64,000 nt of DNA from Eledone cirrhosa (Eukaryota). A program made the position numbers and the translations under genes. Below, in pieces: positions 441-62,659 of the stretch (positions are counted from its first letter, which is position 1; every line of letters begins with the position of its first letter). The notes below the pieces were generated by a model. It searched no databases and was not told where the DNA came from. It saw only the letters and a program-made list of their open reading frames with translations. The DNA is taken from positions 186,992,001 to 187,056,000 of the forward strand of contig OZ024742.1 in assembly GCA_964016885.1 (NCBI GenBank), read 5' to 3'.

Positions 441-779
441 TAAATTAGCGAGAATCGCATTTCGGCTATTGGAAATTATCGAAAAACAACTTCCGAGATG
501 TGTGGCAAGCGCTCCATAGAAACTGGTGAACTAGAGCAACAACGTAAGTTAAAAGGCTAAACACGCTGAGACGATGGTTAAACCATTATCTGCAAAGCCA
601 TAGAAACAACCAAGCTTTTCGGGTAAAAAAAATAATAAAATATGATTGAAAATTATACCCGGACCCTTAGTGGTGAGGTCCAATAACTTACGTTGTTGCT
701 CTAGTTAACTAGTTTCTATGGAGCGCTTTCCAAAGTTGATTTTCGCTAATTTCCAATACCCGAAATGCAATTCTCGCTA

Positions 780-784
<5 letters not shown>
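441..784. mobile_element. Non-coding fold-back element with ~105-bp imperfect inverted arms, inserted in (TA)n
   Basis: 441-551 (TAAATTAGCGAGAATCGC...GAGCAACAACGTAAGTTA) is the reverse complement of 684-784. TA runs flank both sides. Confidence 0.75.
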
Positions 785-818
<34 letters not shown>

Positions 819-819
<1 letters not shown>

Positions 820-1330
820 CAACATCATAAAGAGCAAAAGACAACCTAAATCCATAAAAAACATCCTCACACAAGCAAAAATCCAACAAACCCCCACAAT
901 GAACCCTACAGTAACAAAATGCGGAATGCCCAACTGTGGCATATGGATAAATCTAATAGAAGGTTCAACATTCCATTTTAAAGAAGGACAACATTTCACA
1001 GTTAAACACAACTTTACATGTGCATCTGAAAATCTAATCTATGTTTTGACCTGCTCAGGTTGTCAAGAGCACTACATAGGACAGACAAAAAACAGCCTCC
1101 GACAACGGCTGACCGTCCATAAATCACAAATCAAAATACAGGAATACAGAAAGATTGCGTTTAGTGACCATATCGCCAATTGTGCACCCAAGCAACATCC
1201 AAACTTCAAAATTTTCCCCATTTACAAATTCATAGACAACGTTACTTTCAACCATCGTACTAATAAGGAAACGTATTTCATTAACAAATTCAAACCCCTA
1301 CTTAATGCACTAAACTTCGGACTAAACTAA
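819..1330 (+). pseudogene. 5'-truncated Penelope-like element: linker plus GIY-YIG endonuclease
   Basis: In-frame KRQPKSIKNIL upstream of ORF 899-1330, a Cys linker (CGMPNCGIW), FTCASENLIYVLTCSGCQEHYIGQT..LRQRLTVH, and KETYFINKFKPLLN. Begins right after (TA)n. Confidence 0.9.
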
Positions 1331-1975
1331 AACTGGAACGAACAATGAAACATTTACAAATACCTATGTCTCTCTAAAGAGTTACCTCCCTCACACCCTA
1401 CCTAATCCTTTTTCTTAAATAAATTAAATATCATCCAGCATGAATTACCTCTCCCTGCATATTAACTCTCTAAAAAGGGAAATCATATAAAACCCCAGTC
1501 CACCATTTGCCTCCATAATGGATCAACTAAGCACTCTTGCTATATTAACACATTTTGATCGGCTTATCTTCAAGAACTATGCCTGCAAATAACATTATTT
1601 GTTCTTACACATTGACTTATTATGCTCCACATTACGTCCCTTTTATTCTTTTTTCTTTTCACCTCATAAACCTTGTTTGTAAATAACGTTATTCTTTCTG
1701 CACCATTTCTTTAACATGTCCAACACCACCATTCTACACCAATACATATTATAATTTGATAATGCATAAAAATGCTGAAACCGGTAATAGACAATTATTA
1801 AATAAATAAATAAATACCATTGTTAATTAATTAATAAATCAACTTAACACTTCACACAAAGTAAAATATTTCGTTTTAATCATTTTCTAAACCCAGAAAA
1901 AAAGAGAGAAATAAATAAAAAGGGAAAAAAAATATTTCTCTTCCTAATAATCGTCTTTTTCTCACTGTTTTCATA
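1331..1975 (+). mobile_element. 3' UTR/pLTR of the PLE with a decayed HHR at ~1757-1787
   Basis: Directly follows the GIY-YIG stop. Contains TTGATAA-TGCAT-aaaa-ATGC-TGAAAC-CG-GTA and ends at (TA)n. Confidence 0.5.
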
Positions 1976-1996
1976 CATAAATATATATATATATAC

Positions 1997-2694: not shown

Positions 2695-2747
<53 letters not shown>

Positions 2748-3044
2748 TGAAACAAAATGAAAACGAAATTTCATTTCTCACTCTTAGTATGGCACTTACT
2801 TAAATGTAAGTATGCATGTATACGTACATACATATATGTATACAGACGTACAGTAGCATGCACATATATATATATATATACATATATACATACATATGCA
2901 TACAGGTACACATACATATATGCACGTATCAGTTTAGCGGCGCTAACGTCGCTTTGTTCGTTTGTAAACAAACTGAACAGCCTGAATTTATGCCATACGG
3001 TGTTAAGGCAACCACGTCACCTTTTTGTTCAACACTGACACAGG

Positions 3045-3089
3045 AACGATGTACTAGTTTCAAGCTTGTTAGCTATCATCAGCACCGTT
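3045..3089 (-). ncRNA. Type I hammerhead ribozyme (further minus-strand copies at 3511-3555 and 3977-4021)
   Basis: Reverse complement reads AACGGTG-CTGATGA-T-AGCT-aaca-AGCT-T-GAAAC-TA-GTA-CATCGTT: 7-bp stem I, stem II, palindromic ACTAGT stem III, GUA site. Confidence 0.85.
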
Positions 3090-4352
3090 TACCCATCTGC
3101 CAGATAGTTGAACGTTCAAAAGTATATACTTTCCTTATGAAAATTAACGGCTGAGCAGCCTAATTTGCATATTGAGTGAGTTAAATCGGTCAGGCATACC
3201 GAAAACGATAAATTGAAACAAAATGAAAACGAAATTTCATTTCTCACTCTTAGTATGGCACTTACTTAAATGTAAGTATGCATGTATACGTACATACATA
3301 TATGTATACAGACGTACAGTAGCATGCACATATATATATATATATACATATATACATACATATGCATACAGGTACACATACATATATGCACGTATCAGTT
3401 TAGCGGCGCTAACGTCGCTTTGTTCGTTTGTAAACAAACTGAACAGCCTGAATTTATGCCATACGGTGTTAAGGCAACCACGTCACCTTTTTGTTCAACA
3501 CTGACACAGGAACGATGTACTAGTTTCAAGCTTGTTAGCTATCATCAGCACCGTTTACCCATCTGCCAGATAGTTGAACGTTCAAAAGTATATACTTTCC
3601 TTATGAAAATTAACGGCTGAGCAGCCTAATTTGCATATTGAGTGAGTTAAATCGGTCAGGCATACCGAAAACGATAAATTGAAACAAAATGAAAACGAAA
3701 TTTCATTTCTCACTCTTAGTATGGCACTTACTTAAATGTAAGTATGCATGTATACGTACATACATATATGTATACAGACGTACAGTAGCATGCACATATA
3801 TATATATATATACATATATACATACATATGCATACAGGTACACATACATATATGCACGTATCAGTTTAGCGGCGCTAACGTCGCTTTGTTCGTTTGTAAA
3901 CAAACTGAACAGCCTGAATTTATGCCATACGGTGTTAAGGCAACCACGTCACCTTTTTGTTCAACACTGACACAGGAACGATGTACTAGTTTCAAGCTTG
4001 TTAGCTATCATCAGCACCGTTTACCCATCTGCCAGATAGTTGAACGATACGTGCATATATGTATGTGTACCTGTATGCATATGTATGTATATATGTATAT
4101 ATATATATATATGTGCATGCTACTGTACGTCTGTATACATATATGTATGTACGTATACATGCATACTTACATTTAAGTAAGTGCCATACTAAGAGTGAGA
4201 AATGAAATTTCGTTTTCATTTTGTTTCAATTTATCGTTTTCGGTATGCCTGACCGATTTAACTCACTCAATATGCAAATTAGGCTGCTCAGCCGTTAATT
4301 TTCATAAGGAAAGTATATACTTTTGAACGTTCAACTATCTGGCAGATGGGTA

Positions 4353-4397
4353 AACGGTGCTGATGATAGCTAACAAGCTTGAAACTAGTACATCGTT
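4353..4397 (+). ncRNA. Type I hammerhead ribozyme (further copy at 4819-4863)
   Basis: AACGGTG-CTGATGA-TAGCTAACAAGCTT-GAAAC-TA-GTA-CATCGTT read directly on the + strand. Confidence 0.85.
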
Positions 4398-5105
4398 CCT
4401 GTGTCAGTGTTGAACAAAAAGGTGACGTGGTTGCCTTAACACCGTATGGCATAAATTCAGGCTGTTCAGTTTGTTTACAAACGAACAAAGCGACGTTAGC
4501 GCCGCTAAACTGATACGTGCATATATGTATGTGTACCTGTATGCATATGTATGTATATATGTATATATATATATATATGTGCATGCTACTGTACGTCTGT
4601 ATACATATATGTATGTACGTATACATGCATACTTACATTTAAGTAAGTGCCATACTAAGAGTGAGAAATGAAATTTCGTTTTCATTTTGTTTCAATTTAT
4701 CGTTTTCGGTATGCCTGACCGATTTAACTCACTCAATATGCAAATTAGGCTGCTCAGCCGTTAATTTTCATAAGGAAAGTATATACTTTTGAACGTTCAA
4801 CTATCTGGCAGATGGGTAAACGGTGCTGATGATAGCTAACAAGCTTGAAACTAGTACATCGTTCCTGTGTCAGTGTTGAACAAAAAGGTGACGTGGTTGC
4901 CTTAACACCGTATGGCATAAATTCAGGCTGTTCAGTTTGTTTACAAACGAACAAAGCGACGTTAGCGCCGCTAAACTGATACGTGCATATATGTATGTGT
5001 ACCTGTATGCATATGTATGTATATATGTATATATATATATATATGTGCATGCTACTGTACGTCTGTATACATATATGTATGTACGTATACATGCATACTT
5101 ACATT

Positions 5106-5147
<42 letters not shown>

Positions 5148-10451: not shown

Positions 10452-10517
<66 letters not shown>

Positions 10518-11004
10518 TCTCTGTTTCTCTCACCTTCTTTCGCCCCCTCTGTCAGTTACACTTCTCTCGACTGGCCTCTTCCTCGCACTTCCACTCACTC
10601 ACTCTCTGCTTCTCCCCTTCTCACTTCCTCCCGTTTGGCCTGAAGTGGTGTCCTTTCTTGCTCACATCTCACTCCTGTCGCACGGTCTGTTGTCTCTCGC
10701 TCAGGAAATCCACACAGCTTAAGCTGATCGTATTCCCATGTGCTTGTTTTCTCCTATCTTTGCGTTGCTATCCTTATATGTTTGTTTACTTGTCTCGCTC
10801 GCTTTACGCGATTTACTTGTCCCAATAGCTTTATTTAGCTATTGCTCGCACCAACTGGAGGTATATGATTTTTAAAGCGATGAAATACCAATGAAGGTTG
10901 GAAAATCATTGATGATGGACTATTTTTATCATATGTAACCCATGTGCAACCACGCAGTATTCTTTCTTCTTATGTTTTATATATACTTATATATATATAT
11001 ATAT

Positions 11005-11283: not shown

Positions 11284-11285
<2 letters not shown>

Positions 11286-14200
11286 CGTAAACTCCGTTCC
11301 ACTTATTCTAGTAGGCTTTTATATTTATATGTGAGCTGATAGAGTACAGTCTAAGGATTTACAGAAACCCATGAAGCTAGATTTAACACCTTTCTAGTGG
11401 GTCCGGGTATGATTTTACATTCATTTAAATTATTGACGTATTGTTTTATTGATATTTTTTATCTGTTTGGCCCGAATCTTCCTTTATCGATTTTAAATCG
11501 TATGGTTGATTGTAGACTTGTTCTATATGTGACGGTATTTTAACGATAGTTATAGCTCTGATTCATCTGAATTATTGAGCCCTCTGCCGCTCATATCGAA
11601 TTTCGTTTTTCGTGAACTCGTGCGCCGATTTTTCGATACTCGATCTTTCTAATATATTTAGCTCTGGACTTAGCTATCCACCAGTTAATTTTATTGCTCA
11701 TTTTTTGTCGATTCTATTGAGTGATGAATAGCTTTTGTTTTATTTTAACATGTCTATTGAGCACTCTAATTCGATATGTGTATTTCCACATTCACTCGAA
11801 TTGTTTTCGCGGATATAGGGGTCATCTCCCTTGTCTAATGCCATGTGCGTTTTTCACCGCTAGTTGACTCCTCTGCCGCCAGGAAAAAACTCGTTGACAA
11901 CGTAAACTCCGTTCCACTTATTCTAGTAGGCTTTTATATTTATATGTGAGCTGATAGAGTACAGTCTAAGGATTTACAGAAACCCATGAAGCTAGATTTA
12001 ACACCTTTCTAGTGGGTCCGGGTATGATTTTACATTCATTTAAATTATTGACGTATTGTTTTATTGATATTTTTTATCTGTTTGGCCCGAATCTTCCTTT
12101 ATCGATTTTAAATCGTATGGTTGATTGTAGACTTGTTCTATATGTGACGGTATTTTAACGATAGTTATAGCTCTGATTCATCTGAATTATTGAGCCCTCT
12201 GCCGCTCATATCGAATTTCGTTTTTCGTGAACTCGTGCGCCGATTTTTCGATACTCGATCTTTCTAATATATTTAGCTCTGGACTTAGCTATCCACCAGT
12301 TAATTTTATTGCTCATTTTTTGTCGATTCTATTGAGTGATGAATAGCTTTTGTTTTATTTTAACATGTCTATTGAGCACTCTAATTCGATATGTGTATTT
12401 CCACATTCACTCGAATTGTTTTCGCGGATATAGGGGTCATCTCCCTTGTCTAATGCCATGTGCGTTTTTCACCGCTAGTTGACTCCTCTGCCGCCAGGAA
12501 AAAACTCGTTGACAACGTAAACTCCGTTCCACTTATTCTAGTAGGCTTTTATATTTATATGTGAGCTGATAGAGTACAGTCTAAGGATTTACAGAAACCC
12601 ATGAAGCTAGATTTAACACCTTTCTAGTGGGTCCGGGTATGATTTTACATTCATTTAAATTATTGACGTATTGTTTTATTGATATTTTTTATCTGTTTGG
12701 CCCGAATCTTCCTTTATCGATTTTAAATCGTATGGTTGATTGTAGACTTGTTCTATATGTGACGGTATTTTAACGATAGTTATAGCTCTGATTCATCTGA
12801 ATTATTGAGCCCTCTGCCGCTCATATCGAATTTCGTTTTTCGTGAACTCGTGCGCCGATTTTTCGATACTCGATCTTTCTAATATATTTAGCTCTGGACT
12901 TAGCTATCCACCAGTTAATTTTATTGCTCATTTTTTGTCGATTCTATTGAGTGATGAATAGCTTTTGTTTTATTTTAACATGTCTATTGAGCACTCTAAT
13001 TCGATATGTGTATTTCCACATTCACTCGAATTGTTTTCGCGGATATAGGGGTCATCTCCCTTGTCTAATGCCATGTGCGTTTTTCACCGCTAGTTGACTC
13101 CTCTGCCGCCAGGAAAAAACTCGTTGACAACGTAAACTCCGTTCCACTTATTCTAGTAGGCTTTTATATTTATATGTGAGCTGATAGAGTACAGTCTAAG
13201 GATTTACAGAAACCCATGAAGCTAGATTTAACACCTTTCTAGTGGGTCCGGGTATGATTTTACATTCATTTAAATTATTGACGTATTGTTTTATTGATAT
13301 TTTTTATCTGTTTGGCCCGAATCTTCCTTTATCGATTTTAAATCGTATGGTTGATTGTAGACTTGTTCTATATGTGACGGTATTTTAACGATAGTTATAG
13401 CTCTGATTCATCTGAATTATTGAGCCCTCTGCCGCTCATATCGAATTTCGTTTTTCGTGAACTCGTGCGCCGATTTTTCGATACTCGATCTTTCTAATAT
13501 ATTTAGCTCTGGACTTAGCTATCCACCAGTTAATTTTATTGCTCATTTTTTGTCGATTCTATTGAGTGATGAATAGCTTTTGTTTTATTTTAACATGTCT
13601 ATTGAGCACTCTAATTCGATATGTGTATTTCCACATTCACTCGAATTGTTTTCGCGGATATAGGGGTCATCTCCCTTGTCTAATGCCATGTGCGTTTTTC
13701 ACCGCTAGTTGACTCCTCTGCCGCCAGGAAAAAACTCGTTGACAACGTAAACTCCGTTCCACTTATTCTAGTAGGCTTTTATATTTATATGTGAGCTGAT
13801 AGAGTACAGTCTAAGGATTTACAGAAACCCATGAAGCTAGATTTAACACCTTTCTAGTGGGTCCGGGTATGATTTTACATTCATTTAAATTATTGACGTA
13901 TTGTTTTATTGATATTTTTTATCTGTTTGGCCCGAATCTTCCTTTATCGATTTTAAATCGTATGGTTGATTGTAGACTTGTTCTATATGTGACGGTATTT
14001 TAACGATAGTTATAGCTCTGATTCATCTGAATTATTGAGCCCTCTGCCGCTCATATCGAATTTCGTTTTTCGTGAACTCGTGCGCCGATTTTTCGATACT
14101 CGATCTTTCTAATATATTTAGCTCTGGACTTAGCTATCCACCAGTTAATTTTATTGCTCATTTTTTGTCGATTCTATTGAGTGATGAATAGCTTTTGTTT

Positions 14201-17200
14201 TATTTTAACATGTCTATTGAGCACTCTAATTCGATATGTGTATTTCCACATTCACTCGAATTGTTTTCGCGGATATAGGGGTCATCTCCCTTGTCTAATG
14301 CCATGTGCGTTTTTCACCGCTAGTTGACTCCTCTGCCGCCAGGAAAAAACTCGTTGACAACGTAAACTCCGTTCCACTTATTCTAGTAGGCTTTTATATT
14401 TATATGTGAGCTGATAGAGTACAGTCTAAGGATTTACAGAAACCCATGAAGCTAGATTTAACACCTTTCTAGTGGGTCCGGGTATGATTTTACATTCATT
14501 TAAATTATTGACGTATTGTTTTATTGATATTTTTTATCTGTTTGGCCCGAATCTTCCTTTATCGATTTTAAATCGTATGGTTGATTGTAGACTTGTTCTA
14601 TATGTGACGGTATTTTAACGATAGTTATAGCTCTGATTCATCTGAATTATTGAGCCCTCTGCCGCTCATATCGAATTTCGTTTTTCGTGAACTCGTGCGC
14701 CGATTTTTCGATACTCGATCTTTCTAATATATTTAGCTCTGGACTTAGCTATCCACCAGTTAATTTTATTGCTCATTTTTTGTCGATTCTATTGAGTGAT
14801 GAATAGCTTTTGTTTTATTTTAACATGTCTATTGAGCACTCTAATTCGATATGTGTATTTCCACATTCACTCGAATTGTTTTCGCGGATATAGGGGTCAT
14901 CTCCCTTGTCTAATGCCATGTGCGTTTTTCACCGCTAGTTGACTCCTCTGCCGCCAGGAAAAAACTCGTTGACAACGTAAACTCCGTTCCACTTATTCTA
15001 GTAGGCTTTTATATTTATATGTGAGCTGATAGAGTACAGTCTAAGGATTTACAGAAACCCATGAAGCTAGATTTAACACCTTTCTAGTGGGTCCGGGTAT
15101 GATTTTACATTCATTTAAATTATTGACGTATTGTTTTATTGATATTTTTTATCTGTTTGGCCCGAATCTTCCTTTATCGATTTTAAATCGTATGGTTGAT
15201 TGTAGACTTGTTCTATATGTGACGGTATTTTAACGATAGTTATAGCTCTGATTCATCTGAATTATTGAGCCCTCTGCCGCTCATATCGAATTTCGTTTTT
15301 CGTGAACTCGTGCGCCGATTTTTCGATACTCGATCTTTCTAATATATTTAGCTCTGGACTTAGCTATCCACCAGTTAATTTTATTGCTCATTTTTTGTCG
15401 ATTCTATTGAGTGATGAATAGCTTTTGTTTTATTTTAACATGTCTATTGAGCACTCTAATTCGATATGTGTATTTCCACATTCACTCGAATTGTTTTCGC
15501 GGATATAGGGGTCATCTCCCTTGTCTAATGCCATGTGCGTTTTTCACCGCTAGTTGACTCCTCTGCCGCCAGGAAAAAACTCGTTGACAACGTAAACTCC
15601 GTTCCACTTATTCTAGTAGGCTTTTATATTTATATGTGAGCTGATAGAGTACAGTCTAAGGATTTACAGAAACCCATGAAGCTAGATTTAACACCTTTCT
15701 AGTGGGTCCGGGTATGATTTTACATTCATTTAAATTATTGACGTATTGTTTTATTGATATTTTTTATCTGTTTGGCCCGAATCTTCCTTTATCGATTTTA
15801 AATCGTATGGTTGATTGTAGACTTGTTCTATATGTGACGGTATTTTAACGATAGTTATAGCTCTGATTCATCTGAATTATTGAGCCCTCTGCCGCTCATA
15901 TCGAATTTCGTTTTTCGTGAACTCGTGCGCCGATTTTTCGATACTCGATCTTTCTAATATATTTAGCTCTGGACTTAGCTATCCACCAGTTAATTTTATT
16001 GCTCATTTTTTGTCGATTCTATTGAGTGATGAATAGCTTTTGTTTTATTTTAACATGTCTATTGAGCACTCTAATTCGATATGTGTATTTCCACATTCAC
16101 TCGAATTGTTTTCGCGGATATAGGGGTCATCTCCCTTGTCTAATGCCATGTGCGTTTTTCACCGCTAGTTGACTCCTCTGCCGCCAGGAAAAAACTCGTT
16201 GACAACGTAAACTCCGTTCCACTTATTCTAGTAGGCTTTTATATTTATATGTGAGCTGATAGAGTACAGTCTAAGGATTTACAGAAACCCATGAAGCTAG
16301 ATTTAACACCTTTCTAGTGGGTCCGGGTATGATTTTACATTCATTTAAATTATTGACGTATTGTTTTATTGATATTTTTTATCTGTTTGGCCCGAATCTT
16401 CCTTTATCGATTTTAAATCGTATGGTTGATTGTAGACTTGTTCTATATGTGACGGTATTTTAACGATAGTTATAGCTCTGATTCATCTGAATTATTGAGC
16501 CCTCTGCCGCTCATATCGAATTTCGTTTTTCGTGAACTCGTGCGCCGATTTTTCGATACTCGATCTTTCTAATATATTTAGCTCTGGACTTAGCTATCCA
16601 CCAGTTAATTTTATTGCTCATTTTTTGTCGATTCTATTGAGTGATGAATAGCTTTTGTTTTATTTTAACATGTCTATTGAGCACTCTAATTCGATATGTG
16701 TATTTCCACATTCACTCGAATTGTTTTCGCGGATATAGGGGTCATCTCCCTTGTCTAATGCCATGTGCGTTTTTCACCGCTAGTTGACTCCTCTGCCGCC
16801 AGGAAAAAACTCGTTGACAACGTAAACTCCGTTCCACTTATTCTAGTAGGCTTTTATATTTATATGTGAGCTGATAGAGTACAGTCTAAGGATTTACAGA
16901 AACCCATGAAGCTAGATTTAACACCTTTCTAGTGGGTCCGGGTATGATTTTACATTCATTTAAATTATTGACGTATTGTTTTATTGATATTTTTTATCTG
17001 TTTGGCCCGAATCTTCCTTTATCGATTTTAAATCGTATGGTTGATTGTAGACTTGTTCTATATGTGACGGTATTTTAACGATAGTTATAGCTCTGATTCA
17101 TCTGAATTATTGAGCCCTCTGCCGCTCATATCGAATTTCGTTTTTCGTGAACTCGTGCGCCGATTTTTCGATACTCGATCTTTCTAATATATTTAGCTCT

Positions 17201-20200
17201 GGACTTAGCTATCCACCAGTTAATTTTATTGCTCATTTTTTGTCGATTCTATTGAGTGATGAATAGCTTTTGTTTTATTTTAACATGTCTATTGAGCACT
17301 CTAATTCGATATGTGTATTTCCACATTCACTCGAATTGTTTTCGCGGATATAGGGGTCATCTCCCTTGTCTAATGCCATGTGCGTTTTTCACCGCTAGTT
17401 GACTCCTCTGCCGCCAGGAAAAAACTCGTTGACAACGTAAACTCCGTTCCACTTATTCTAGTAGGCTTTTATATTTATATGTGAGCTGATAGAGTACAGT
17501 CTAAGGATTTACAGAAACCCATGAAGCTAGATTTAACACCTTTCTAGTGGGTCCGGGTATGATTTTACATTCATTTAAATTATTGACGTATTGTTTTATT
17601 GATATTTTTTATCTGTTTGGCCCGAATCTTCCTTTATCGATTTTAAATCGTATGGTTGATTGTAGACTTGTTCTATATGTGACGGTATTTTAACGATAGT
17701 TATAGCTCTGATTCATCTGAATTATTGAGCCCTCTGCCGCTCATATCGAATTTCGTTTTTCGTGAACTCGTGCGCCGATTTTTCGATACTCGATCTTTCT
17801 AATATATTTAGCTCTGGACTTAGCTATCCACCAGTTAATTTTATTGCTCATTTTTTGTCGATTCTATTGAGTGATGAATAGCTTTTGTTTTATTTTAACA
17901 TGTCTATTGAGCACTCTAATTCGATATGTGTATTTCCACATTCACTCGAATTGTTTTCGCGGATATAGGGGTCATCTCCCTTGTCTAATGCCATGTGCGT
18001 TTTTCACCGCTAGTTGACTCCTCTGCCGCCAGGAAAAAACTCGTTGACAACGTAAACTCCGTTCCACTTATTCTAGTAGGCTTTTATATTTATATGTGAG
18101 CTGATAGAGTACAGTCTAAGGATTTACAGAAACCCATGAAGCTAGATTTAACACCTTTCTAGTGGGTCCGGGTATGATTTTACATTCATTTAAATTATTG
18201 ACGTATTGTTTTATTGATATTTTTTATCTGTTTGGCCCGAATCTTCCTTTATCGATTTTAAATCGTATGGTTGATTGTAGACTTGTTCTATATGTGACGG
18301 TATTTTAACGATAGTTATAGCTCTGATTCATCTGAATTATTGAGCCCTCTGCCGCTCATATCGAATTTCGTTTTTCGTGAACTCGTGCGCCGATTTTTCG
18401 ATACTCGATCTTTCTAATATATTTAGCTCTGGACTTAGCTATCCACCAGTTAATTTTATTGCTCATTTTTTGTCGATTCTATTGAGTGATGAATAGCTTT
18501 TGTTTTATTTTAACATGTCTATTGAGCACTCTAATTCGATATGTGTATTTCCACATTCACTCGAATTGTTTTCGCGGATATAGGGGTCATCTCCCTTGTC
18601 TAATGCCATGTGCGTTTTTCACCGCTAGTTGACTCCTCTGCCGCCAGGAAAAAACTCGTTGACAACGTAAACTCCGTTCCACTTATTCTAGTAGGCTTTT
18701 ATATTTATATGTGAGCTGATAGAGTACAGTCTAAGGATTTACAGAAACCCATGAAGCTAGATTTAACACCTTTCTAGTGGGTCCGGGTATGATTTTACAT
18801 TCATTTAAATTATTGACGTATTGTTTTATTGATATTTTTTATCTGTTTGGCCCGAATCTTCCTTTATCGATTTTAAATCGTATGGTTGATTGTAGACTTG
18901 TTCTATATGTGACGGTATTTTAACGATAGTTATAGCTCTGATTCATCTGAATTATTGAGCCCTCTGCCGCTCATATCGAATTTCGTTTTTCGTGAACTCG
19001 TGCGCCGATTTTTCGATACTCGATCTTTCTAATATATTTAGCTCTGGACTTAGCTATCCACCAGTTAATTTTATTGCTCATTTTTTGTCGATTCTATTGA
19101 GTGATGAATAGCTTTTGTTTTATTTTAACATGTCTATTGAGCACTCTAATTCGATATGTGTATTTCCACATTCACTCGAATTGTTTTCGCGGATATAGGG
19201 GTCATCTCCCTTGTCTAATGCCATGTGCGTTTTTCACCGCTAGTTGACTCCTCTGCCGCCAGGAAAAAACTCGTTGACAACGTAAACTCCGTTCCACTTA
19301 TTCTAGTAGGCTTTTATATTTATATGTGAGCTGATAGAGTACAGTCTAAGGATTTACAGAAACCCATGAAGCTAGATTTAACACCTTTCTAGTGGGTCCG
19401 GGTATGATTTTACATTCATTTAAATTATTGACGTATTGTTTTATTGATATTTTTTATCTGTTTGGCCCGAATCTTCCTTTATCGATTTTAAATCGTATGG
19501 TTGATTGTAGACTTGTTCTATATGTGACGGTATTTTAACGATAGTTATAGCTCTGATTCATCTGAATTATTGAGCCCTCTGCCGCTCATATCGAATTTCG
19601 TTTTTCGTGAACTCGTGCGCCGATTTTTCGATACTCGATCTTTCTAATATATTTAGCTCTGGACTTAGCTATCCACCAGTTAATTTTATTGCTCATTTTT
19701 TGTCGATTCTATTGAGTGATGAATAGCTTTTGTTTTATTTTAACATGTCTATTGAGCACTCTAATTCGATATGTGTATTTCCACATTCACTCGAATTGTT
19801 TTCGCGGATATAGGGGTCATCTCCCTTGTCTAATGCCATGTGCGTTTTTCACCGCTAGTTGACTCCTCTGCCGCCAGGAAAAAACTCGTTGACAACGTAA
19901 ACTCCGTTCCACTTATTCTAGTAGGCTTTTATATTTATATGTGAGCTGATAGAGTACAGTCTAAGGATTTACAGAAACCCATGAAGCTAGATTTAACACC
20001 TTTCTAGTGGGTCCGGGTATGATTTTACATTCATTTAAATTATTGACGTATTGTTTTATTGATATTTTTTATCTGTTTGGCCCGAATCTTCCTTTATCGA
20101 TTTTAAATCGTATGGTTGATTGTAGACTTGTTCTATATGTGACGGTATTTTAACGATAGTTATAGCTCTGATTCATCTGAATTATTGAGCCCTCTGCCGC

Positions 20201-20266
20201 TCATATCGAATTTCGTTTTTCGTGAACTCGTGCGCCGATTTTTCGATACTCGATCTTTCTAATATA
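11284..20266. repeat. Tandem array of a 615-bp non-coding unit, ~14.6 apparently identical copies, flanked by (TA)n
   Basis: CGTAAACTCCGTTCC recurs at 11286, 11901, 12516 and onward (period 615). No ORF of 60 aa or more. No differences seen between copies. Confidence 0.97.
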
Positions 20267-20284
20267 TATATATATATATATATT

Positions 20285-29867: not shown

Positions 29868-30746
29868 TGAGGTGTATCAGAAAAGTTCCAGGACTGATGT
29901 CACAAAAGATTTATTTCAAACCCAAACTTCCCACTAAGAGTTTTCTCCTTCAAAGTAACCACCCTGGAGAATGTAACTGTAATCTTAGCTCTCTGCAGCG
30001 ATCAAACTTTTTTTCTTCATAATTTTATATACATGTCCTCTGTTTCAGGTCGTCAAGCAATGAGCACAGAGCAACGAACAAACTTGAAAACTCCATCAGA
30101 TGCACTGGGGTTGCTGCTGCAAGTGTATGGTAATGAGACGATGTCACGCTCACGTGTTTTTGAGTGGTACAAGAGGTTTGAAGAAGGACGCGAGGACGTG
30201 GAAGATGACCCCAGGACCGGAAGGCCCTCAACAATCAGGACTGAGGTCAACGTTGAGCGCGTCAGGCAGATGGTGCGTAACGATCTTCGGCTGACTGTTC
30301 GACTGATTGCAAATGAGCTGGGCATGAATCTGGACAGCGTCTGGAAGATTCTCACTGAAGATTTGGACATGCGGAAAGTTTGCGCGAAGTTGGTGCCAAA
30401 ATTGCTGAAGGATGGCCAGAAAGGTCGACGCATGCAAGTGTGCCAGGACATCTTCGAGCGTCTTGAAACCGAACCGATCTTGCTAGAGACTGTCATTACC
30501 GGTGAGTACGACCCGGAGGGGACCCGTTTTGAAGACGTGGACGACATCAAAAAGGCCGTGACGACGGAACTGCGGAGGATCCCGGAAGAATCCTTCCAGG
30601 AGTGCATGCAAGCGTGGCAGAAAAGGATGGAAAAGTGCATTAGATTCCAGGGGGATTAATTTGAAGGAAAAAACTCCTCGTGTGAAGTTTGAGTTTGAAA
30701 TAAATCTTTTGTGACATCAGTCGTGGAACTTTTCTGAGACACCTCG
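29868..30746 (+). mobile_element. Internally deleted mariner transposon
   Basis: ~85-bp imperfect TIRs (TGAGGTGTATCAGAAAAGTTCC / GGAACTTTTCTGAGACACCTCG) and a TA TSD. Confidence 0.92.
30033..30659 (+). pseudogene. Mariner transposase lacking the DD34D catalytic core
   Basis: MSRSRVFEWYKRFEEGREDVEDDPRTGRPST (HTH region), CAKLVPKLL (WVP linker), then ITGEYDPE fused in frame to the C-terminal GTRFEDVDDIK...WQKRMEKCIRFQG. Confidence 0.9.
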
Positions 30747-52818: not shown

Positions 52819-53676
52819 GTGTGTTTCTGCGTGTGTGTGTGTGTATATATACACAATGTACAATATAGTTAGGTGTATTGGTCTTTCATTTGATACGTAT
52901 AATTGACACAATAATTGGTTGTATCGATATTTCATTTCATATATATATATATATATACACGTTTAAATTTGGTGGTTTACCACTGTGTAGAATGGTTCAT
53001 TCTGCAATGTTAACCTTAGTGTATTATGAGAAAGCACTCGACATTATGCAACTCATCCATCTTTGATGTTGAAACATGCTTGTAGGTGGTGCGGGGACGG
53101 AGTCAAATATATTTTCAGGTAAAATGATAGGTTGCCAAACAGGATTAATTTCCTTAATTATTCATTACTGCAAATACCATGCATATTTCAGTGGCCAGGT
53201 TGCGCAAGAACTCGGTGACATCTTCAGGTGTAAATTGCATAATAGAAGTATACCAACGGAATGATGGTAAACCCATTCCAAGAGGCTTTTAGGAAATAAG
53301 CAAAGAAAAAACCGAGAAAAAAAAGCGTGTTTATGTTTGTGACCCAGAGACGTTCGAAGCAGCATGTTGTTATTATGCTCCGTCATCTCTCTTTATATAG
53401 ACACATGATATACAGTATTCATTCCAAGTTGGGAACCCCCCAGTCCATCTTTTGGCTAGAACTCCTCCTTTAGGGGCAAGGGAATTTTGTTTGAGAATCA
53501 TTGCACTAAGTCATATATTTTACGGACGAAATAAAAAATTGCAATTATATATGAATTATACAGAAGAAAAAACAAGAGAGTTAAAGCAACACTGACAGAA
53601 AACACTTTAGCTTGCATAATACATACATATATATATAATATATAATAATATTATTAATTCTGGCAATATTACACAA

Positions 53677-57648
<3,972 letters not shown>

Positions 57649-57929
57649 TGCACGCCATCTTTGCCTGGTAATAACATATGTGAGAGCCGATAGAAGCTAT
57701 ACACGAAAGTTCCATGGAACCAACACTGACGTCAAAGACATCTTTGATGTGGTGTTTAGGGAAACCATAATTGCTGCTCGTTTATATTTTCAAACTAAGG
57801 AAACGTAACAAATAAAACATTTACAAACTGTTGAGAAAATGGTTGTTGTTTTTTGTTCAGTGGAATCCGAATTAGAGGGACGAAAATAATTCCGGGAGGT
57901 AGGTTTGAAAACAAATACAAAAGCAAATT

Positions 57930-58427: not shown

Positions 58428-61400
58428 CCAGAAACTAGATACACCACCCACCCCATCATCTGTGTACACTAAACACAACAGCCAGATAACGACACATTTT
58501 CACCTTCACCGCCACCGCTCACTACGGCCATCATTACCACCACTATCCCATCACCGCCGCCACCACCCCTTGACTCCGCTACAGCACCATCACTACAGTA
58601 ATACGGTCACATCACCGCCACCACTGCCTCGGTATCGACATCACCACCACCACTGTCTCAGTATCGCTAACGCCGCCAGTCTCCCACTTCCCTGCTGGCT
58701 GCTACTTCCACATTATAGAATTCCTACTACTAACAAAGAGGAAGGCATCAAAATATATAGATAGACCCAAAAGAAAAAAGAAAAAACAAACAACAAAACC
58801 AAAGCAGCACAGCAACAACAGCAAAAAACGAGAAAAACAAACAGAGAAAAACAAAAACAAAAAAAAGAAACCCCAAAAACGTAAAGAAAATAAGAATGAA
58901 GAGAGAAGCAGGCGGACGGACAGAGAAGAGGGGGGAAAAAGTAAAACTTAAAAAACTAAAACTAAGTCAGACATTCGAACACTACATTACAATGAAACTT
59001 ATGCTTATTCATTTCTGGGGCCCTTTCTGCCTGTGTGTTTGTTTGTTTATGTGTGTTCGTATACAGCGTGGCGATAATGCCACACAAGGGCCAAGTGGGA
59101 TGGCGGATCCACAGATGGCTATGTAAACATACATCCGCCAATCCTCGATAAGAGTGTTTAAATATCGAACATAAACAGTTCGAATAACGGTGAAATGGAG
59201 ACTAGAACGTCATGTGACAGACTCTCACCCAACAGGTGCCCCCTGGCTCAGCAGCAGGAACCTGACTGTCAACCAAATACTGCTGATGTTGGAGGAAGGA
59301 GAAGAAGGAAAGGGGCCAGAACCAACTGGACGAAAGAATTGAATAGAACTGTTATGCAATGCTACCTGAAAAGTAACCCCAAGGAGAGGGGCTACAGGAG
59401 ACGGATGCATAACATCTGGAACGAGATTGGTTTATTTAAATTAGATGAACAAAAATTGGCCGGGCAGGCTCGGGTAATAAGAACTAATGGGTGGATAAGC
59501 GAGCTGGAACTGGAGGAACTGAGCAGAGAGAATGGCTTGGAGATGGCGGGTGTAGTATGCCAGACAAACGAGCCGGTGGGAAATGAAGGTGAGGAGGTCC
59601 TGAGAACGGAGGAACCACCCGAAGCAGACAATGATCTGAGTACTGAGATAAATAATACCTGGAACAGAGATACGGCCACTGAGGAGATGAATGCTGACGG
59701 GCTAGGACAAGATTCGGTTGACATCCTAAATTTAGTGGTAGATGAATTGAACAATGATAGTGGGAGACCTATGAACCTAAGATTTGTAGACAGGAAAAAG
59801 TTAAAAGAAACAACAGCTAAGGTAAACAAAGTCATCCCATACCTTGAGGCGAGGAGCCTTCACCAGTGCAACAATATCCTCAGAGCAACAGCAAATACGG
59901 TGAGGAAACTACTTGGTATAAAAGCGAGAGGAAACAACAGACAAGAAAGAGCAGAGCCGTGGTGGAAGAAGCGACTGAGTGGGCAAATCGGGGAAATGAG
60001 AAATGACATAGGAAAGCTTGAGTCACTACTGAATGGGACACTAAAAAACATAGGCACTAAAAATAGACTGGAAATAAAATACAAAACTAGGAGTAAAAAG
60101 CTAAATATTATCATAGAGGAATTGAAGCAACGCATTGTAGCAAAGAGTGCAAAAATCAGGCGATACGAGAACAGAGTCAGTCAGTATAAACAGAACCGCA
60201 TGTTCGACAACAACCAGAAGATGCTGTTTGGACAGCTTGAGGGCAAAGAAAGAGGCAACGACTTGATCCCTGGGGCGGAGCAAACTAAAACATTCTGGAG
60301 AGGAATATGGGAGCAGGATGTTAGACACAACGCCCAGGCAGGGTGGATTGAGACAGTACAGAGGGAGATCGGTGAGCAGGCACAGCAACAGACTGATTTG
60401 AGTATCACAGTTGAAACTCTTAAGGGGCAAGCCAAAAAACTAACCAACTGGAAATCACCAGGCCCAGATGGTGTGCAGGGGTATTGGATTAAACATTTAA
60501 CATCCCTCCACCCGAAGCTGACGGCCATGTTCAATGACTGCTTGGTGTCGGGTGAGGTGCCAGATGGTTGACAAAAGGTACCACAGTTCTGATAATGAAA
60601 GACCGAATCAAGGGTAATGATTTTACCAACTATAGACCTATCACATGTCTGCCCGTAATGTGGAAACTGTTGACGAGCATTGTGTCTGAGGAAATCTACC
60701 ATCACCTCCACACAAACAACTTGTTACCGGACGAACAGAAAGGATGCCGAAAGAAGTCACGTGGTACAAAGGACCAGTTGCTTATTGATAAGATGGTAAT
60801 GGGGAATTGCAGGAGGAGACACACTGATCTTGCTATGGGATGGATAGACTACAGAAAGGCATTTGACATGGTGCCTCATTCCTGGATCACCAAAAGCCTG
60901 GAGATCTTCAGGGTGGCGGATAACATCAGACAGTTGCTAGGCAGGAGTATGGGGTCCTGGGAGACAGAGTTGACATCAACTGGAGTATCCTTGGGAAGCG
61001 TGAAGATCAAGAGAGGTATCTTCCAGGGAGATAGCCTGTCCCCTCTGTTGTTTGTCCTTGCCCTGATGCCCTTGACCATTATGCTGCGAAAAGTGAGAGC
61101 AGGATACAAGTTGGGAAGGGGAGAGCTTACCATCAATCACCTCCTCTTCATGGACGATCTTAAGCTCTTCGGGAAGAGTGAGAAGGAGTTGGATGTGCTT
61201 GTTGACACTGTCCGTATTTTCAGCAGTGATATATGTATGCAGTTTGGTATTGGTAAATGTGGAGTCATTGTGATGAAGAGGGGTAGGTTGAGCAGAAGTA
61301 ACGGGATCCAGATACCAACAGGTGAGATGATAAAGGAAATTGACTCTGAGGAAGGATACAAGTATTTGGGCGTTCTGGAGGCTGATGGCATAAAGAACAA

Positions 61401-62659
61401 AAAAATGAAGGAATTGTTAAGAACTGAATACATTCGGAGAGTAAGGAGCGTATTGAAGTCACATCTGAACAGCAGAAATGCCATAAGCGCAGTAAATTCC
61501 CGAGCTGTGTCTATTATTAGGTACAGTGCGGGAATTCTGAGATGGAATGTTGCTGAACAGAAAGAAATGGATAGGAAGACTAGGAAGCTATTGACTATCT
61601 ACAACATGTTCCACAAGAGGAGTGATGTCGATAGACTCTACCTAAGGAGATCTGAGGGTGGAAGAGGTCTTATCAGCATAGAGGACTGTGTTCAGATGGA
61701 GAAAAACAACCTATACAAATCCGTGACCTATAGTAAGGAGCCAATGCTCAGAGCTGTACTGAAGGAGGGGACAGTAGGCCAGGGGATGTCCAGGGAGGAA
61801 ATAACATCAAGGAGGAAGAGCAGCCTTAAGGGAAAACCCCTTCATAGTACCTTCTTTGAGAAAACTGAATTTAGAGATCCACAGACATGGAACTGGTTGA
61901 GAAGAGGAGACCTCAAAAAGGCTACAGAAGGAATGCTAATGGCTGCGCAGGAGCAGGCCCTCAAAACGAAGTGGTTGAAGCACCATATCTACAAGGAGGA
62001 GGCCAGCCCACTGTGCAGGATCTGTGGAGAGAGAGAGGAGACTGTGGCTCACATTGTGTCCGAGTGTAAACACCTAGCCCAGACCCACTATAAGGGCTGG
62101 AGACACGATGTGATGGGCAGGGTGATCCACTGGCACCTGTGCAAAGTAAACAATCTACAACATTCTGAGAAATGGTATGAGCATAGGCCAGAGGCGGTGA
62201 TGGAGAACAATCAGGTGAAGGTGCTGTGGGATTTTAGGATACAGACGGACAAATAACTGGAACACAATAGACCTGACCTGGTGGTTGTGGACAAAGAAAA
62301 AAGATCGTGCCTGATTGTGGATGTGGCCTGCCCGTTCGACATGAGAGTGCAAGAGAAGGAGAGGGAGAAAATTAACCGATACCAGGACCTAAAGTGGGAG
62401 GTGAAAAGGATTTGGAACTGCCATGAAGTCAAAGTGATCCCGATTGTCATAGGCGCACTGGGGACTATCTCCAAAGGTTTCCAGGGATGGTTAAAGAAAA
62501 TCGGCCCCTTCACGCTTTTTGGAACGCTTCAAAAGGCATGCTTGCTTGGAACAGCAAGAACCCTCCGATACGTCCTGAATATCTGAGGCTGCAGGTAGTG
62601 GCTTGATATTCAATCCAACGGACTTTCCAGTTAACCAACATCAATGACTGAGATTCAAG

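Follow-up and report, generated by a model that had tools for sequence, protein, structure and literature searches.

The genome of Eledone cirrhosa carries a family of mobile repeats of about 610 nt that has no open reading frame (ORF) and that, in all likelihood, spreads in the manner of Penelope-like elements (PLEs). Its T-rich RNA strand would be copied by a borrowed Penelope-type enzyme, and the RNAs are likely cut at a conserved GUC and likely in part circularised. Judged from sequence, this reading as a whole has a probability of about one half. The family is retrozyme-like in its behaviour, yet it is without the defining hammerhead. Two of its members lie in the window, the whole stretch of 64,000 nt that was analysed: a fold-back at 441-784 and an array of 615-bp units at 11284-20270.

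The fold-back and the 615-bp array almost certainly belong to one ORF-less repeat family, the fold-back as an old member and the array as a young one. A full unit of the fold-back family (L003, 609 nt) was aligned with the 615-bp unit at 396 identities in 664 columns and a score of 219, whereas 500 dinucleotide shuffles had a mean of -46 and a maximum of 2.5 (z 17), and the reverse strand scored -109. The full unit of the fold-back family is itself a tandem unit of 609-616 bp, and its alignment with the 615-bp unit over the whole length bears out the diverged family proposed by an initial annotation. That annotation had quoted five motifs in the same order in both elements. All five are present in order (minus strand of 441-784, at 712-703, 696-688, 666-649, 645-642 and 631-618), but homology holds for only part of them. 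CTAGTTAACT and ACAACGTAA sit in the inverted arm, which is the opposite strand of the family, and are chance matches: the inverted arm scored 20 against the 615-bp unit, a value reached by 583 of 1000 shuffles, and CTAGTTAACT depends on a private substitution where the related copy L002 and the long arm have TTCAC. In contrast, the block GGGTCCGGGTAT...RCCCGAA scored 44, which none of 1000 shuffles reached, and GGGTCCGGGTA and RCCCGAA are true homology between the two elements. The sharing is not confined to motifs, as had been supposed, but runs through the whole collinear unit, where 216 of 523 ungapped columns are invariant among 10 subfamily representatives. Nor is conservation restricted to the quoted motifs, since the longest invariant run in these representatives, CCAGTTAATTTT (12 nt; P 0.006), belongs to another hairpin; the next in length is CAGAAACCC (9 nt; P 0.09).

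The stretch 441-784 is a self-complementary fold-back flanked by (TA)n runs on both sides. Its long arm (441-685, minus strand) is a 5'-truncated subfamily A copy with the fixed 3' end at 441, and its short inverted arm (684-784, plus strand) is a second 5'-truncated copy of subfamily A, consisting of the last ~100 nt with a 10-nt deletion. The (TA)n-type microsatellite target at 368-442 adjoins the 3' end of the long arm, a (TA)18 target at 783-818 adjoins that of the short arm, and the two arms are joined 5'-to-5' over a common TA at 684-685. The long arm starts inside hairpin Y, upstream of the GUC site and just 3' of the CAGAAACCC block; CAGAAACCC is absent from the fold-back copy, and with it the GAAAC block is missing. 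The arm contains GGGUC/CGGGUA (656-666, minus strand; the stroke marks the predicted cut), in which the 5'-end pile-up site of the family falls between 662 and 661, and ACCCG (620-624, minus strand), the 3' strand of helix Z, whose partner is CGGGU. Folding of the fold-back gave a z of -18, compared with -2.5 for the long arm by itself and -0.3 and 0.0 for the two strands of the subfamily B core; the value of -18 is due to the inverted duplication and to nothing more. The fold-back is a decayed two-armed insertion of the ~610-nt repeat, older than the 615-bp array. It may have originated when both ends of one break primed copies and these met over TA. The inverted arm is peculiar to this insertion, as none of 50 others chosen by their 3' junction has one, and the fold-back as the normal form of the family is not supported. 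Opposite-strand matches at L190/L385 are separate insertions rather than inverted arms. L190/L385 and L396 are cases of nested insertion, in which members of different subfamilies occupy a single (TA)n tract in opposite directions; this group also includes a 1.1-kb element inside a D-type copy. The GIY-YIG fragment at 818-1327 sits past the (TA)18 and is part of a different insertion.

The young member is a subfamily B array on the plus strand (11284-20270) of 14.6 x 615 bp, in which the 14 full units are identical. It begins at unit position 242, and its fixed 3' end, at about 20270, abuts (TA)n. The intact core of the first unit (11362-11474, plus strand) recurs every 615 bp and is composed of CAGAAACCC (11362), hairpin Y, GGGUC/CGGGUA (11399, with the predicted cut at 11403/11404) and GCCCG (11470). 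A conserved hairpin, AGCUAU..CCAGUUAAUUUU..AAUAGCU (11671-11735, plus strand, bounds approximate), is located just beyond the fixed 3' end. The genome search covered 3.0 Gb in 1,796 contigs and gave 2,155 candidates for the fold-back's repeat at first look, 40 of which were scored. The pattern AGAAACCC N20-45 GGGTCCGGGTA had 4,941 matches against 3 with a reversed control, and a hairpin motif elsewhere in the unit had 1,634 against 0. Junctions of the unit end with (TA)4 numbered 4,520 on the forward strand against 55 in the control, and doubling this count therefore yields an estimate of about 9,000 insertions. At 90%, 64 full units formed 10 clusters, the subfamilies being 59-89% alike, and a further branch D was seen in a tree of 42 units. 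Full units are 580-634 nt long (one deleted copy has 503 and another 563), within the span of about 50-1000 bp that retrozyme units have, and arrays occur on many contigs. The longest ATG frame is 35-59 aa in 10/10 subfamily representatives, with no ORF of the reverse transcriptase (RT) or GIY-YIG type. No published report of such a family was found in the literature searched. Between 0.61 and 0.83 of the words of the young B unit were present in sequencing runs X2-X7, which carry four organism codes. No RNA run was listed among those containing the unit; the four runs inspected consisted of contigs, and the one suspected to be RNA looked like converted DNA, so the runs do not bear on expression. 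Pattern matches in metagenome and viral sequences (124 loci) were judged to be chance, with a best profile E of 0.25, and a second pattern family, GAAACCGGAACGGG, proved to be GIY-YIG coding sequence and not a relative.

All 21 B arrays compared have a common 3' end within 4 nt, with TA next to it, and 21 different 5' ends; this set consists of the window's array and 20 from the best matches and is biased toward full units. In a sample picked by internal motifs, 57 of 60 insertions extend to the fixed 3' end (3 insertions at locus edges were left out), and of the 50 insertions sampled by 3' junction, 43 fall short of a full unit. It is on the T-rich strand that the fixed end is a 3' end. Folding energy was lower for this strand in 8 of 10 representatives, each compared with 12 shuffles, and CGGGU/GCCCG-type pairs are wobbles on it only; alignment folding leaves the two strands unseparated (z -3.9 and -4.7), with a low SCI of 0.11. 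A fixed 3' end, 5' truncation, partial tandems and a microsatellite target are all features of a Penelope-like footprint, and the PLE-like layout in (TA)n that the initial annotation had noted was confirmed in this form. Truncated 5' ends, partial tandems, inverted copies and a preference for (TA)n are described for Naiad-type PLEs (10.1101/2021.04.23.441226). PLE-type spread of the family is well supported by this evidence. A DNA rolling circle, either Helitron-like or an eccDNA, would replace the retroelement altogether and could account for homogeneous head-to-tail arrays at many loci, but the single fixed end, the TA microhomology, the 43 of 50 insertions below one unit and the 5'-to-5' inversion are PLE traits, which makes it highly improbable. 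Helitron ends read TC...CTRR with a 3' hairpin. The ends of the family do not read TC...CTRR.

Under the PLE reading, the endonuclease would nick (TA)n and the RT would start inside the RNA at the fixed site, upstream of the conserved hairpin beyond it (11671-11735 in the window), which may serve as the RT landing signal. PLE RT is able to start within a template (PMC11167929). A helper PLE containing family sequence was not found in 50 GIY-YIG loci searched with the profile and the covariance model, where the matches were one separate insertion and one at E 2.8 only; this search scored 150 of 10,596 candidates. Two short Naiad motifs gave 0 and 5 chance matches in the genome, and no such Naiad was found by them.

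The 5' ends of insertions cluster just after the motif, which supports the functional signal suspected there. Fifty insertions were taken in genome order by 3' junction out of 51 listed. Counted from the GUC, 15 of them start at 0..+15, compared with a single start at -66..-2, which corresponds to a hazard ratio of 8.9 (P 4e-9). The 51st locus, which was omitted, holds an array of 16 units; it runs past the site 16 times and has its end elsewhere. A post hoc hint had preceded this test (4 of 25 ends near GUC, P 0.017), and one locus, L147, is common to both. Genome-wide, 140 reverse-strand junctions fall around the site, compared with 42 and 49 in control windows, the three junction anchors admitting unequal numbers of subfamilies. 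The pile-up is unsharp, and most ends lie at +4 to +15. A hand count of 26 junction loci placed 15 ends at 0..+11 and 10 at -19..-5, with 1 ambiguous; exactly 0 was seen in 2. On later passes, stops at the site occurred in 5 of 15 for non-B copies and in 2 of 97 for B (Fisher P 4e-4). These results indicate that the motif is the place where templates end or the enzyme stops.

Several processes could produce such a boundary, and they were ranked in the order cut, roadblock, transcription start, splice donor and DNA circle. The cut is ranked first because the boundary falls where the half hammerhead core described below predicts it. On a template cut after GUC, the RT would run off after ~230-250 nt, and the run-off end would be joined to TA by short homology with the loss of 0-15 nt, which would generate the hotspot. 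On an uncut or circular template, the RT would continue and produce arrays, and subfamily B, which seldom stops at the site, would produce long ones. The cut itself would be made by the RNA in a hammerhead-like fold with the CUGANGA strand absent or split, perhaps aided by a protein, and this is the weakest step of the proposed mechanism. In L168, an internal deletion rejoins at the GUC site, as though the enzyme had jumped from there; L168 and L136 are both copies with internal deletions.

A roadblock would explain the boundary by stalling of the RT, either at the foot of hairpin Y or where a protein is bound, with no cut, and with circles, if any, made otherwise. The spread of ends over +4 to +15 and the ends 5-19 nt upstream within hairpin Y are in its favor, as are the absence of a full ribozyme core, the similar stop rate of non-B copies on first and later passes, and the dispensability of hammerhead cleavage for insertion in vitro (PMC11167929). 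A stop rate that stays constant from pass to pass is equally compatible with a roadblock and with a cut. However, hairpin Y, with 4 + 5 pairs, is weak, and longer stems close to the 3' end do not stop the enzyme; subfamily B, with the same Y and Z helices, stops in just 2 of 97 passes; and a roadblock gives no reason why the boundary coincides with the GAAAC...GUC half core. On balance, the roadblock is a rather doubtful explanation, although it is the one placed nearest to the cut. If the hotspot were instead a transcription start, an internal promoter would supply linear read-through templates, and unequal exchange would lengthen the arrays with neither circle nor cut. Copies of n + 0.4 units are expected if each unit has a start, PLEs are thought to use pLTR promoters (PMC11167929), and local amplification was seen in the 38-kb array described below. 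However, no more than 2 of the 21 B arrays begin within the pile-up interval, young arrays of 12-16 identical units stand at separate loci with clean fixed ends, and the conserved letters form helices around a loop that varies from 11 to ~61 nt. This explanation is therefore unlikely. A splice donor, GG/GTRAG at +3 with an acceptor CAG 46 nt upstream, would make excised introns the short templates. GTR follows in 23/23 copies, with GTAAG, GTATG or GTGAG in 10, and 5' UTR introns occur in PLEs (10.1101/2021.04.23.441226). Against it, the G at +5 is missing in 13/23, several insertions begin before the GT, at 0 or +1, and no exon-exon junction was found among 544 redundant intact motifs, one exon-less pattern match being unrelated sequence. 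It would be surprising if splicing were the cause.

The arrays bear on the proposed circularisation. In 15 B arrays with at least 3 full units, 9 array-wide haplotypes and one mixed site were found. Five further young arrays, in which 6-15 units were compared, are nearly or fully homogeneous, one having a variant in 5 of 12 units. Overall, a mixed site was seen in 2 of the 26 young arrays, and haplotypes are common to several loci. This homogeneity is most simply accounted for by a single-unit bottleneck, for example a circle. It is not proof of a circle, because haplotypes are shared between loci, mixed sites occur and local growth took place in the 38-kb array. The haplotypes common to several loci could come from long parent arrays. 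The array of ~38 kb is composed of 607-610 bp family units (G000:C1:81.709-81.748 Mb, L370-L374) with block-shared variants; it is a retro-inserted unit that turned into a satellite and grew by local duplication.

The core around the cut site was compared in 23 aligned copies, in which the order is CAGAA, helix Y (ACCC/GGGU with an inner hairpin), C, and helix Z (CGGGU/RCCCG). The outer stem of helix Y is invariant and 97.8% paired, the whole hairpin Y having 4 + 5 pairs, while its inner stem switches from G-C to A-U, a difference (14 versus 9 copies) that amounts to one clade split. The pairing of CGGGT with ACCCG or GCCCG, proposed earlier, stood up as helix Z on the T-rich strand, where 98.2% of cells are pairable in the 23 copies and both strands persist around a loop of 11 to ~61 nt; its changes are one-sided only, with no two-sided change. 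Upstream, helix W with tandem G-A pairs is 82% paired and scored 0.355, against at most 0.158 when slid, and also exceeded shuffles. Helix X (81% paired, 0.286) shares bases with W and has a low predicted probability of 0.07. Tree-aware covariation in 42 units gave no significant pair (best E 2.1), the few lineages making for low power; the covariation expected of a conserved RNA structure did not appear beyond the tree, and the refuting conditions named in the initial annotation had a split outcome. Naive column-pair counts mostly reflected the division into two main clades.

All 23 aligned copies, which had been selected by these motifs, have GAAAC, GUC and the C after it without change. In a motif-independent check on 19 units selected by the distant hairpin, AGAAACC was present in 18 and GTCCGGG in 16. 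The combination GAAAC...GUC-C corresponds exactly to one half of a hammerhead, the G and S half. G12-A13-A14, the A15.1-U16.1 pair, stem III (97.8% paired) and the NUH triplet are present in 23/23 motif-selected copies. A complete hammerhead was not found, as no three-block combination in any order, on either strand, exact or with one mismatch, is common to 2 of 10 subfamilies, and the scan showed no unbroken CUGANGA as a conserved block between stems I and II. The same scan found two rewired controls (L080, L353) and missed a minimal pLTR control at strict settings. Rfam gave 0 matches at the gathering score in the window, and 109 matches at E<=10 in 5 loci, none of them to a ribozyme and the best being (TA)n matches to miRNA models.

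A split type I reading, CNGA..[17-19 nt]..GGA, agrees with part of the core: C3 is present in 21/23 copies, G5 in 23/23, A6 in 21/23, G8 in 22/23 and A9 in 18/23 (U in 5), while position 4 varies, with the expected U4 in 9 of 23 copies, G in 8 and A in 6. Its stem I has pairs in 22, 0, 0, 22, 20 and 23 of 23 copies at six positions, that is, one pair and then a 2x2 purine loop. The closing pair of stem II is formed in 3/23 copies, or in 15/23 in a shifted register, and helices W and Z compete for the split-core bases. An insertion after A6 lowered hammerhead activity in PMC3088659. The ribozyme idea of the initial annotation gained indirect support from the pile-up of 5' ends after GUC. Tentatively, the RNA may cleave itself in an undescribed form, either a hammerhead-derived fold in which 17-19 inserted nucleotides interrupt CUGANGA at position 7 or a three-way-junction ribozyme of a new kind with only GAAAC...GUC. 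Such an RNA would be cut after GUC into linear and circular ~610-nt forms, at a rate tuned by subfamily, with low cutters giving long arrays; we regard this self-cleavage as possible and not as probable.

Other ribozyme readings were rejected. A rewired hammerhead of the SGC or Naiad type does not fit, as GAAA precedes GUC in the family and ACCCG is followed by AAU or UUU. The AGAA/NGAY internal loop is reminiscent of loop A of the hairpin ribozyme, and the AGAAAC strand of half of its loop B; the invariants of the hairpin ribozyme are G8, G+1, A22-A24, C25 and A38 (PMC8216279). In the hairpin ribozyme reading, however, G8 is found in 14/23 copies only and the loop B partner strand is absent, and tandem G-A pairs are a simpler interpretation of the AGAA/NGAY loop. 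Comparison by eye with the respective consensus led to the rejection of HDV-like, SECIS and long-range CUGAUGA readings.

Metazoan non-LTR retrozymes and this family are both dispersed, ORF-less tandem units of a few hundred bases. Retrozymes range from partial copies to ~60-mers, and circular RNA and PLE enzymes are proposed for their movement (PMC7229834 and 10.64898/2026.07.22.740005). They carry a type I hammerhead in each unit, whereas the family has the GAAAC...GUC half only, and circular RNA has been shown for retrozymes, while for the family it is proposed. Since retrozymes were found by way of the hammerhead in tandem repeats, a family that lacks it would be invisible to the published pipelines. 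Naiad/Neptune-type PLEs share with the family the (TA)n target, 5' truncation, partial tandems and an inverted 5' copy (10.1101/2021.04.23.441226), and octopus Naiad 3' UTRs are T-rich like its RNA strand. Unlike Naiads, the family has no ORF and one 3' end cluster, compared with two ends 30-40 nt apart in Naiads, and no sequence link to these was found. PMC8557442 reports no hammerhead in Naiads and marks Naiad_Ovul as 'HHR_half_core', a label that its supplement gives to eight Naiads. By eye, the 3' ends of Naiad_Obim and Naiad_Ovul in that supplement have all three hammerhead blocks in a rewired order, and these blocks are unlike the family motif. Non-circularly permuted hammerheads (SGC, CSG, GCS) have an unexpected core wiring and are missed by standard searches (PMC10085705). 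As presented there, they keep an unbroken CUGAnGA beside stems I and II, whereas the family has no such conserved block. Should self-cleavage hold, the family would contain a self-cleaving RNA at odds with the hammerhead core as now accepted; otherwise, such elements would be able to spread and build long arrays without a ribozyme, a point that bears on the role of hammerheads in PLEs. The subfamily contrast of 5/15 versus 2/97 stops provides natural test pairs.

Several other elements were observed in the window. A copy of a different T-rich repeat (10515-10980, plus strand), not homologous to the family, has a rewired Naiad-type hammerhead with its motif at about 10846-10920; the order in this repeat is cleavage block, GAAA block and CUGAUGA, the last having decayed to TTGATGA in the window copy, and intact copies are L080, L175, L351 and L353. 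A 466-bp unit forms two back-to-back arrays at 2742-5107, of 2.8 and 2.3 copies with 100% identity; a minimal hammerhead lies near 3082 on the minus strand. The 3' part of a Penelope-like element (740-1980, plus strand; GIY-YIG domain PF01541, E 1.8e-7) lies in the (TA)n tract of the fold-back and has a minimal hammerhead-like motif near 1760. A fold-back of a PLE pLTR end at 2055-2409 has CUGAGGA...GAAA hammerhead motifs on each arm. A ~2-kb nested-repeat segment at 53670-57649 is a tandem duplication with 92% identity. A mariner-type transposase fragment (HTH_48) is located at 29898-30659 on the plus strand, and a non-LTR reverse transcriptase (RVT_1, E 3e-23) split over two frames is located at 59162-62256, also on the plus strand.
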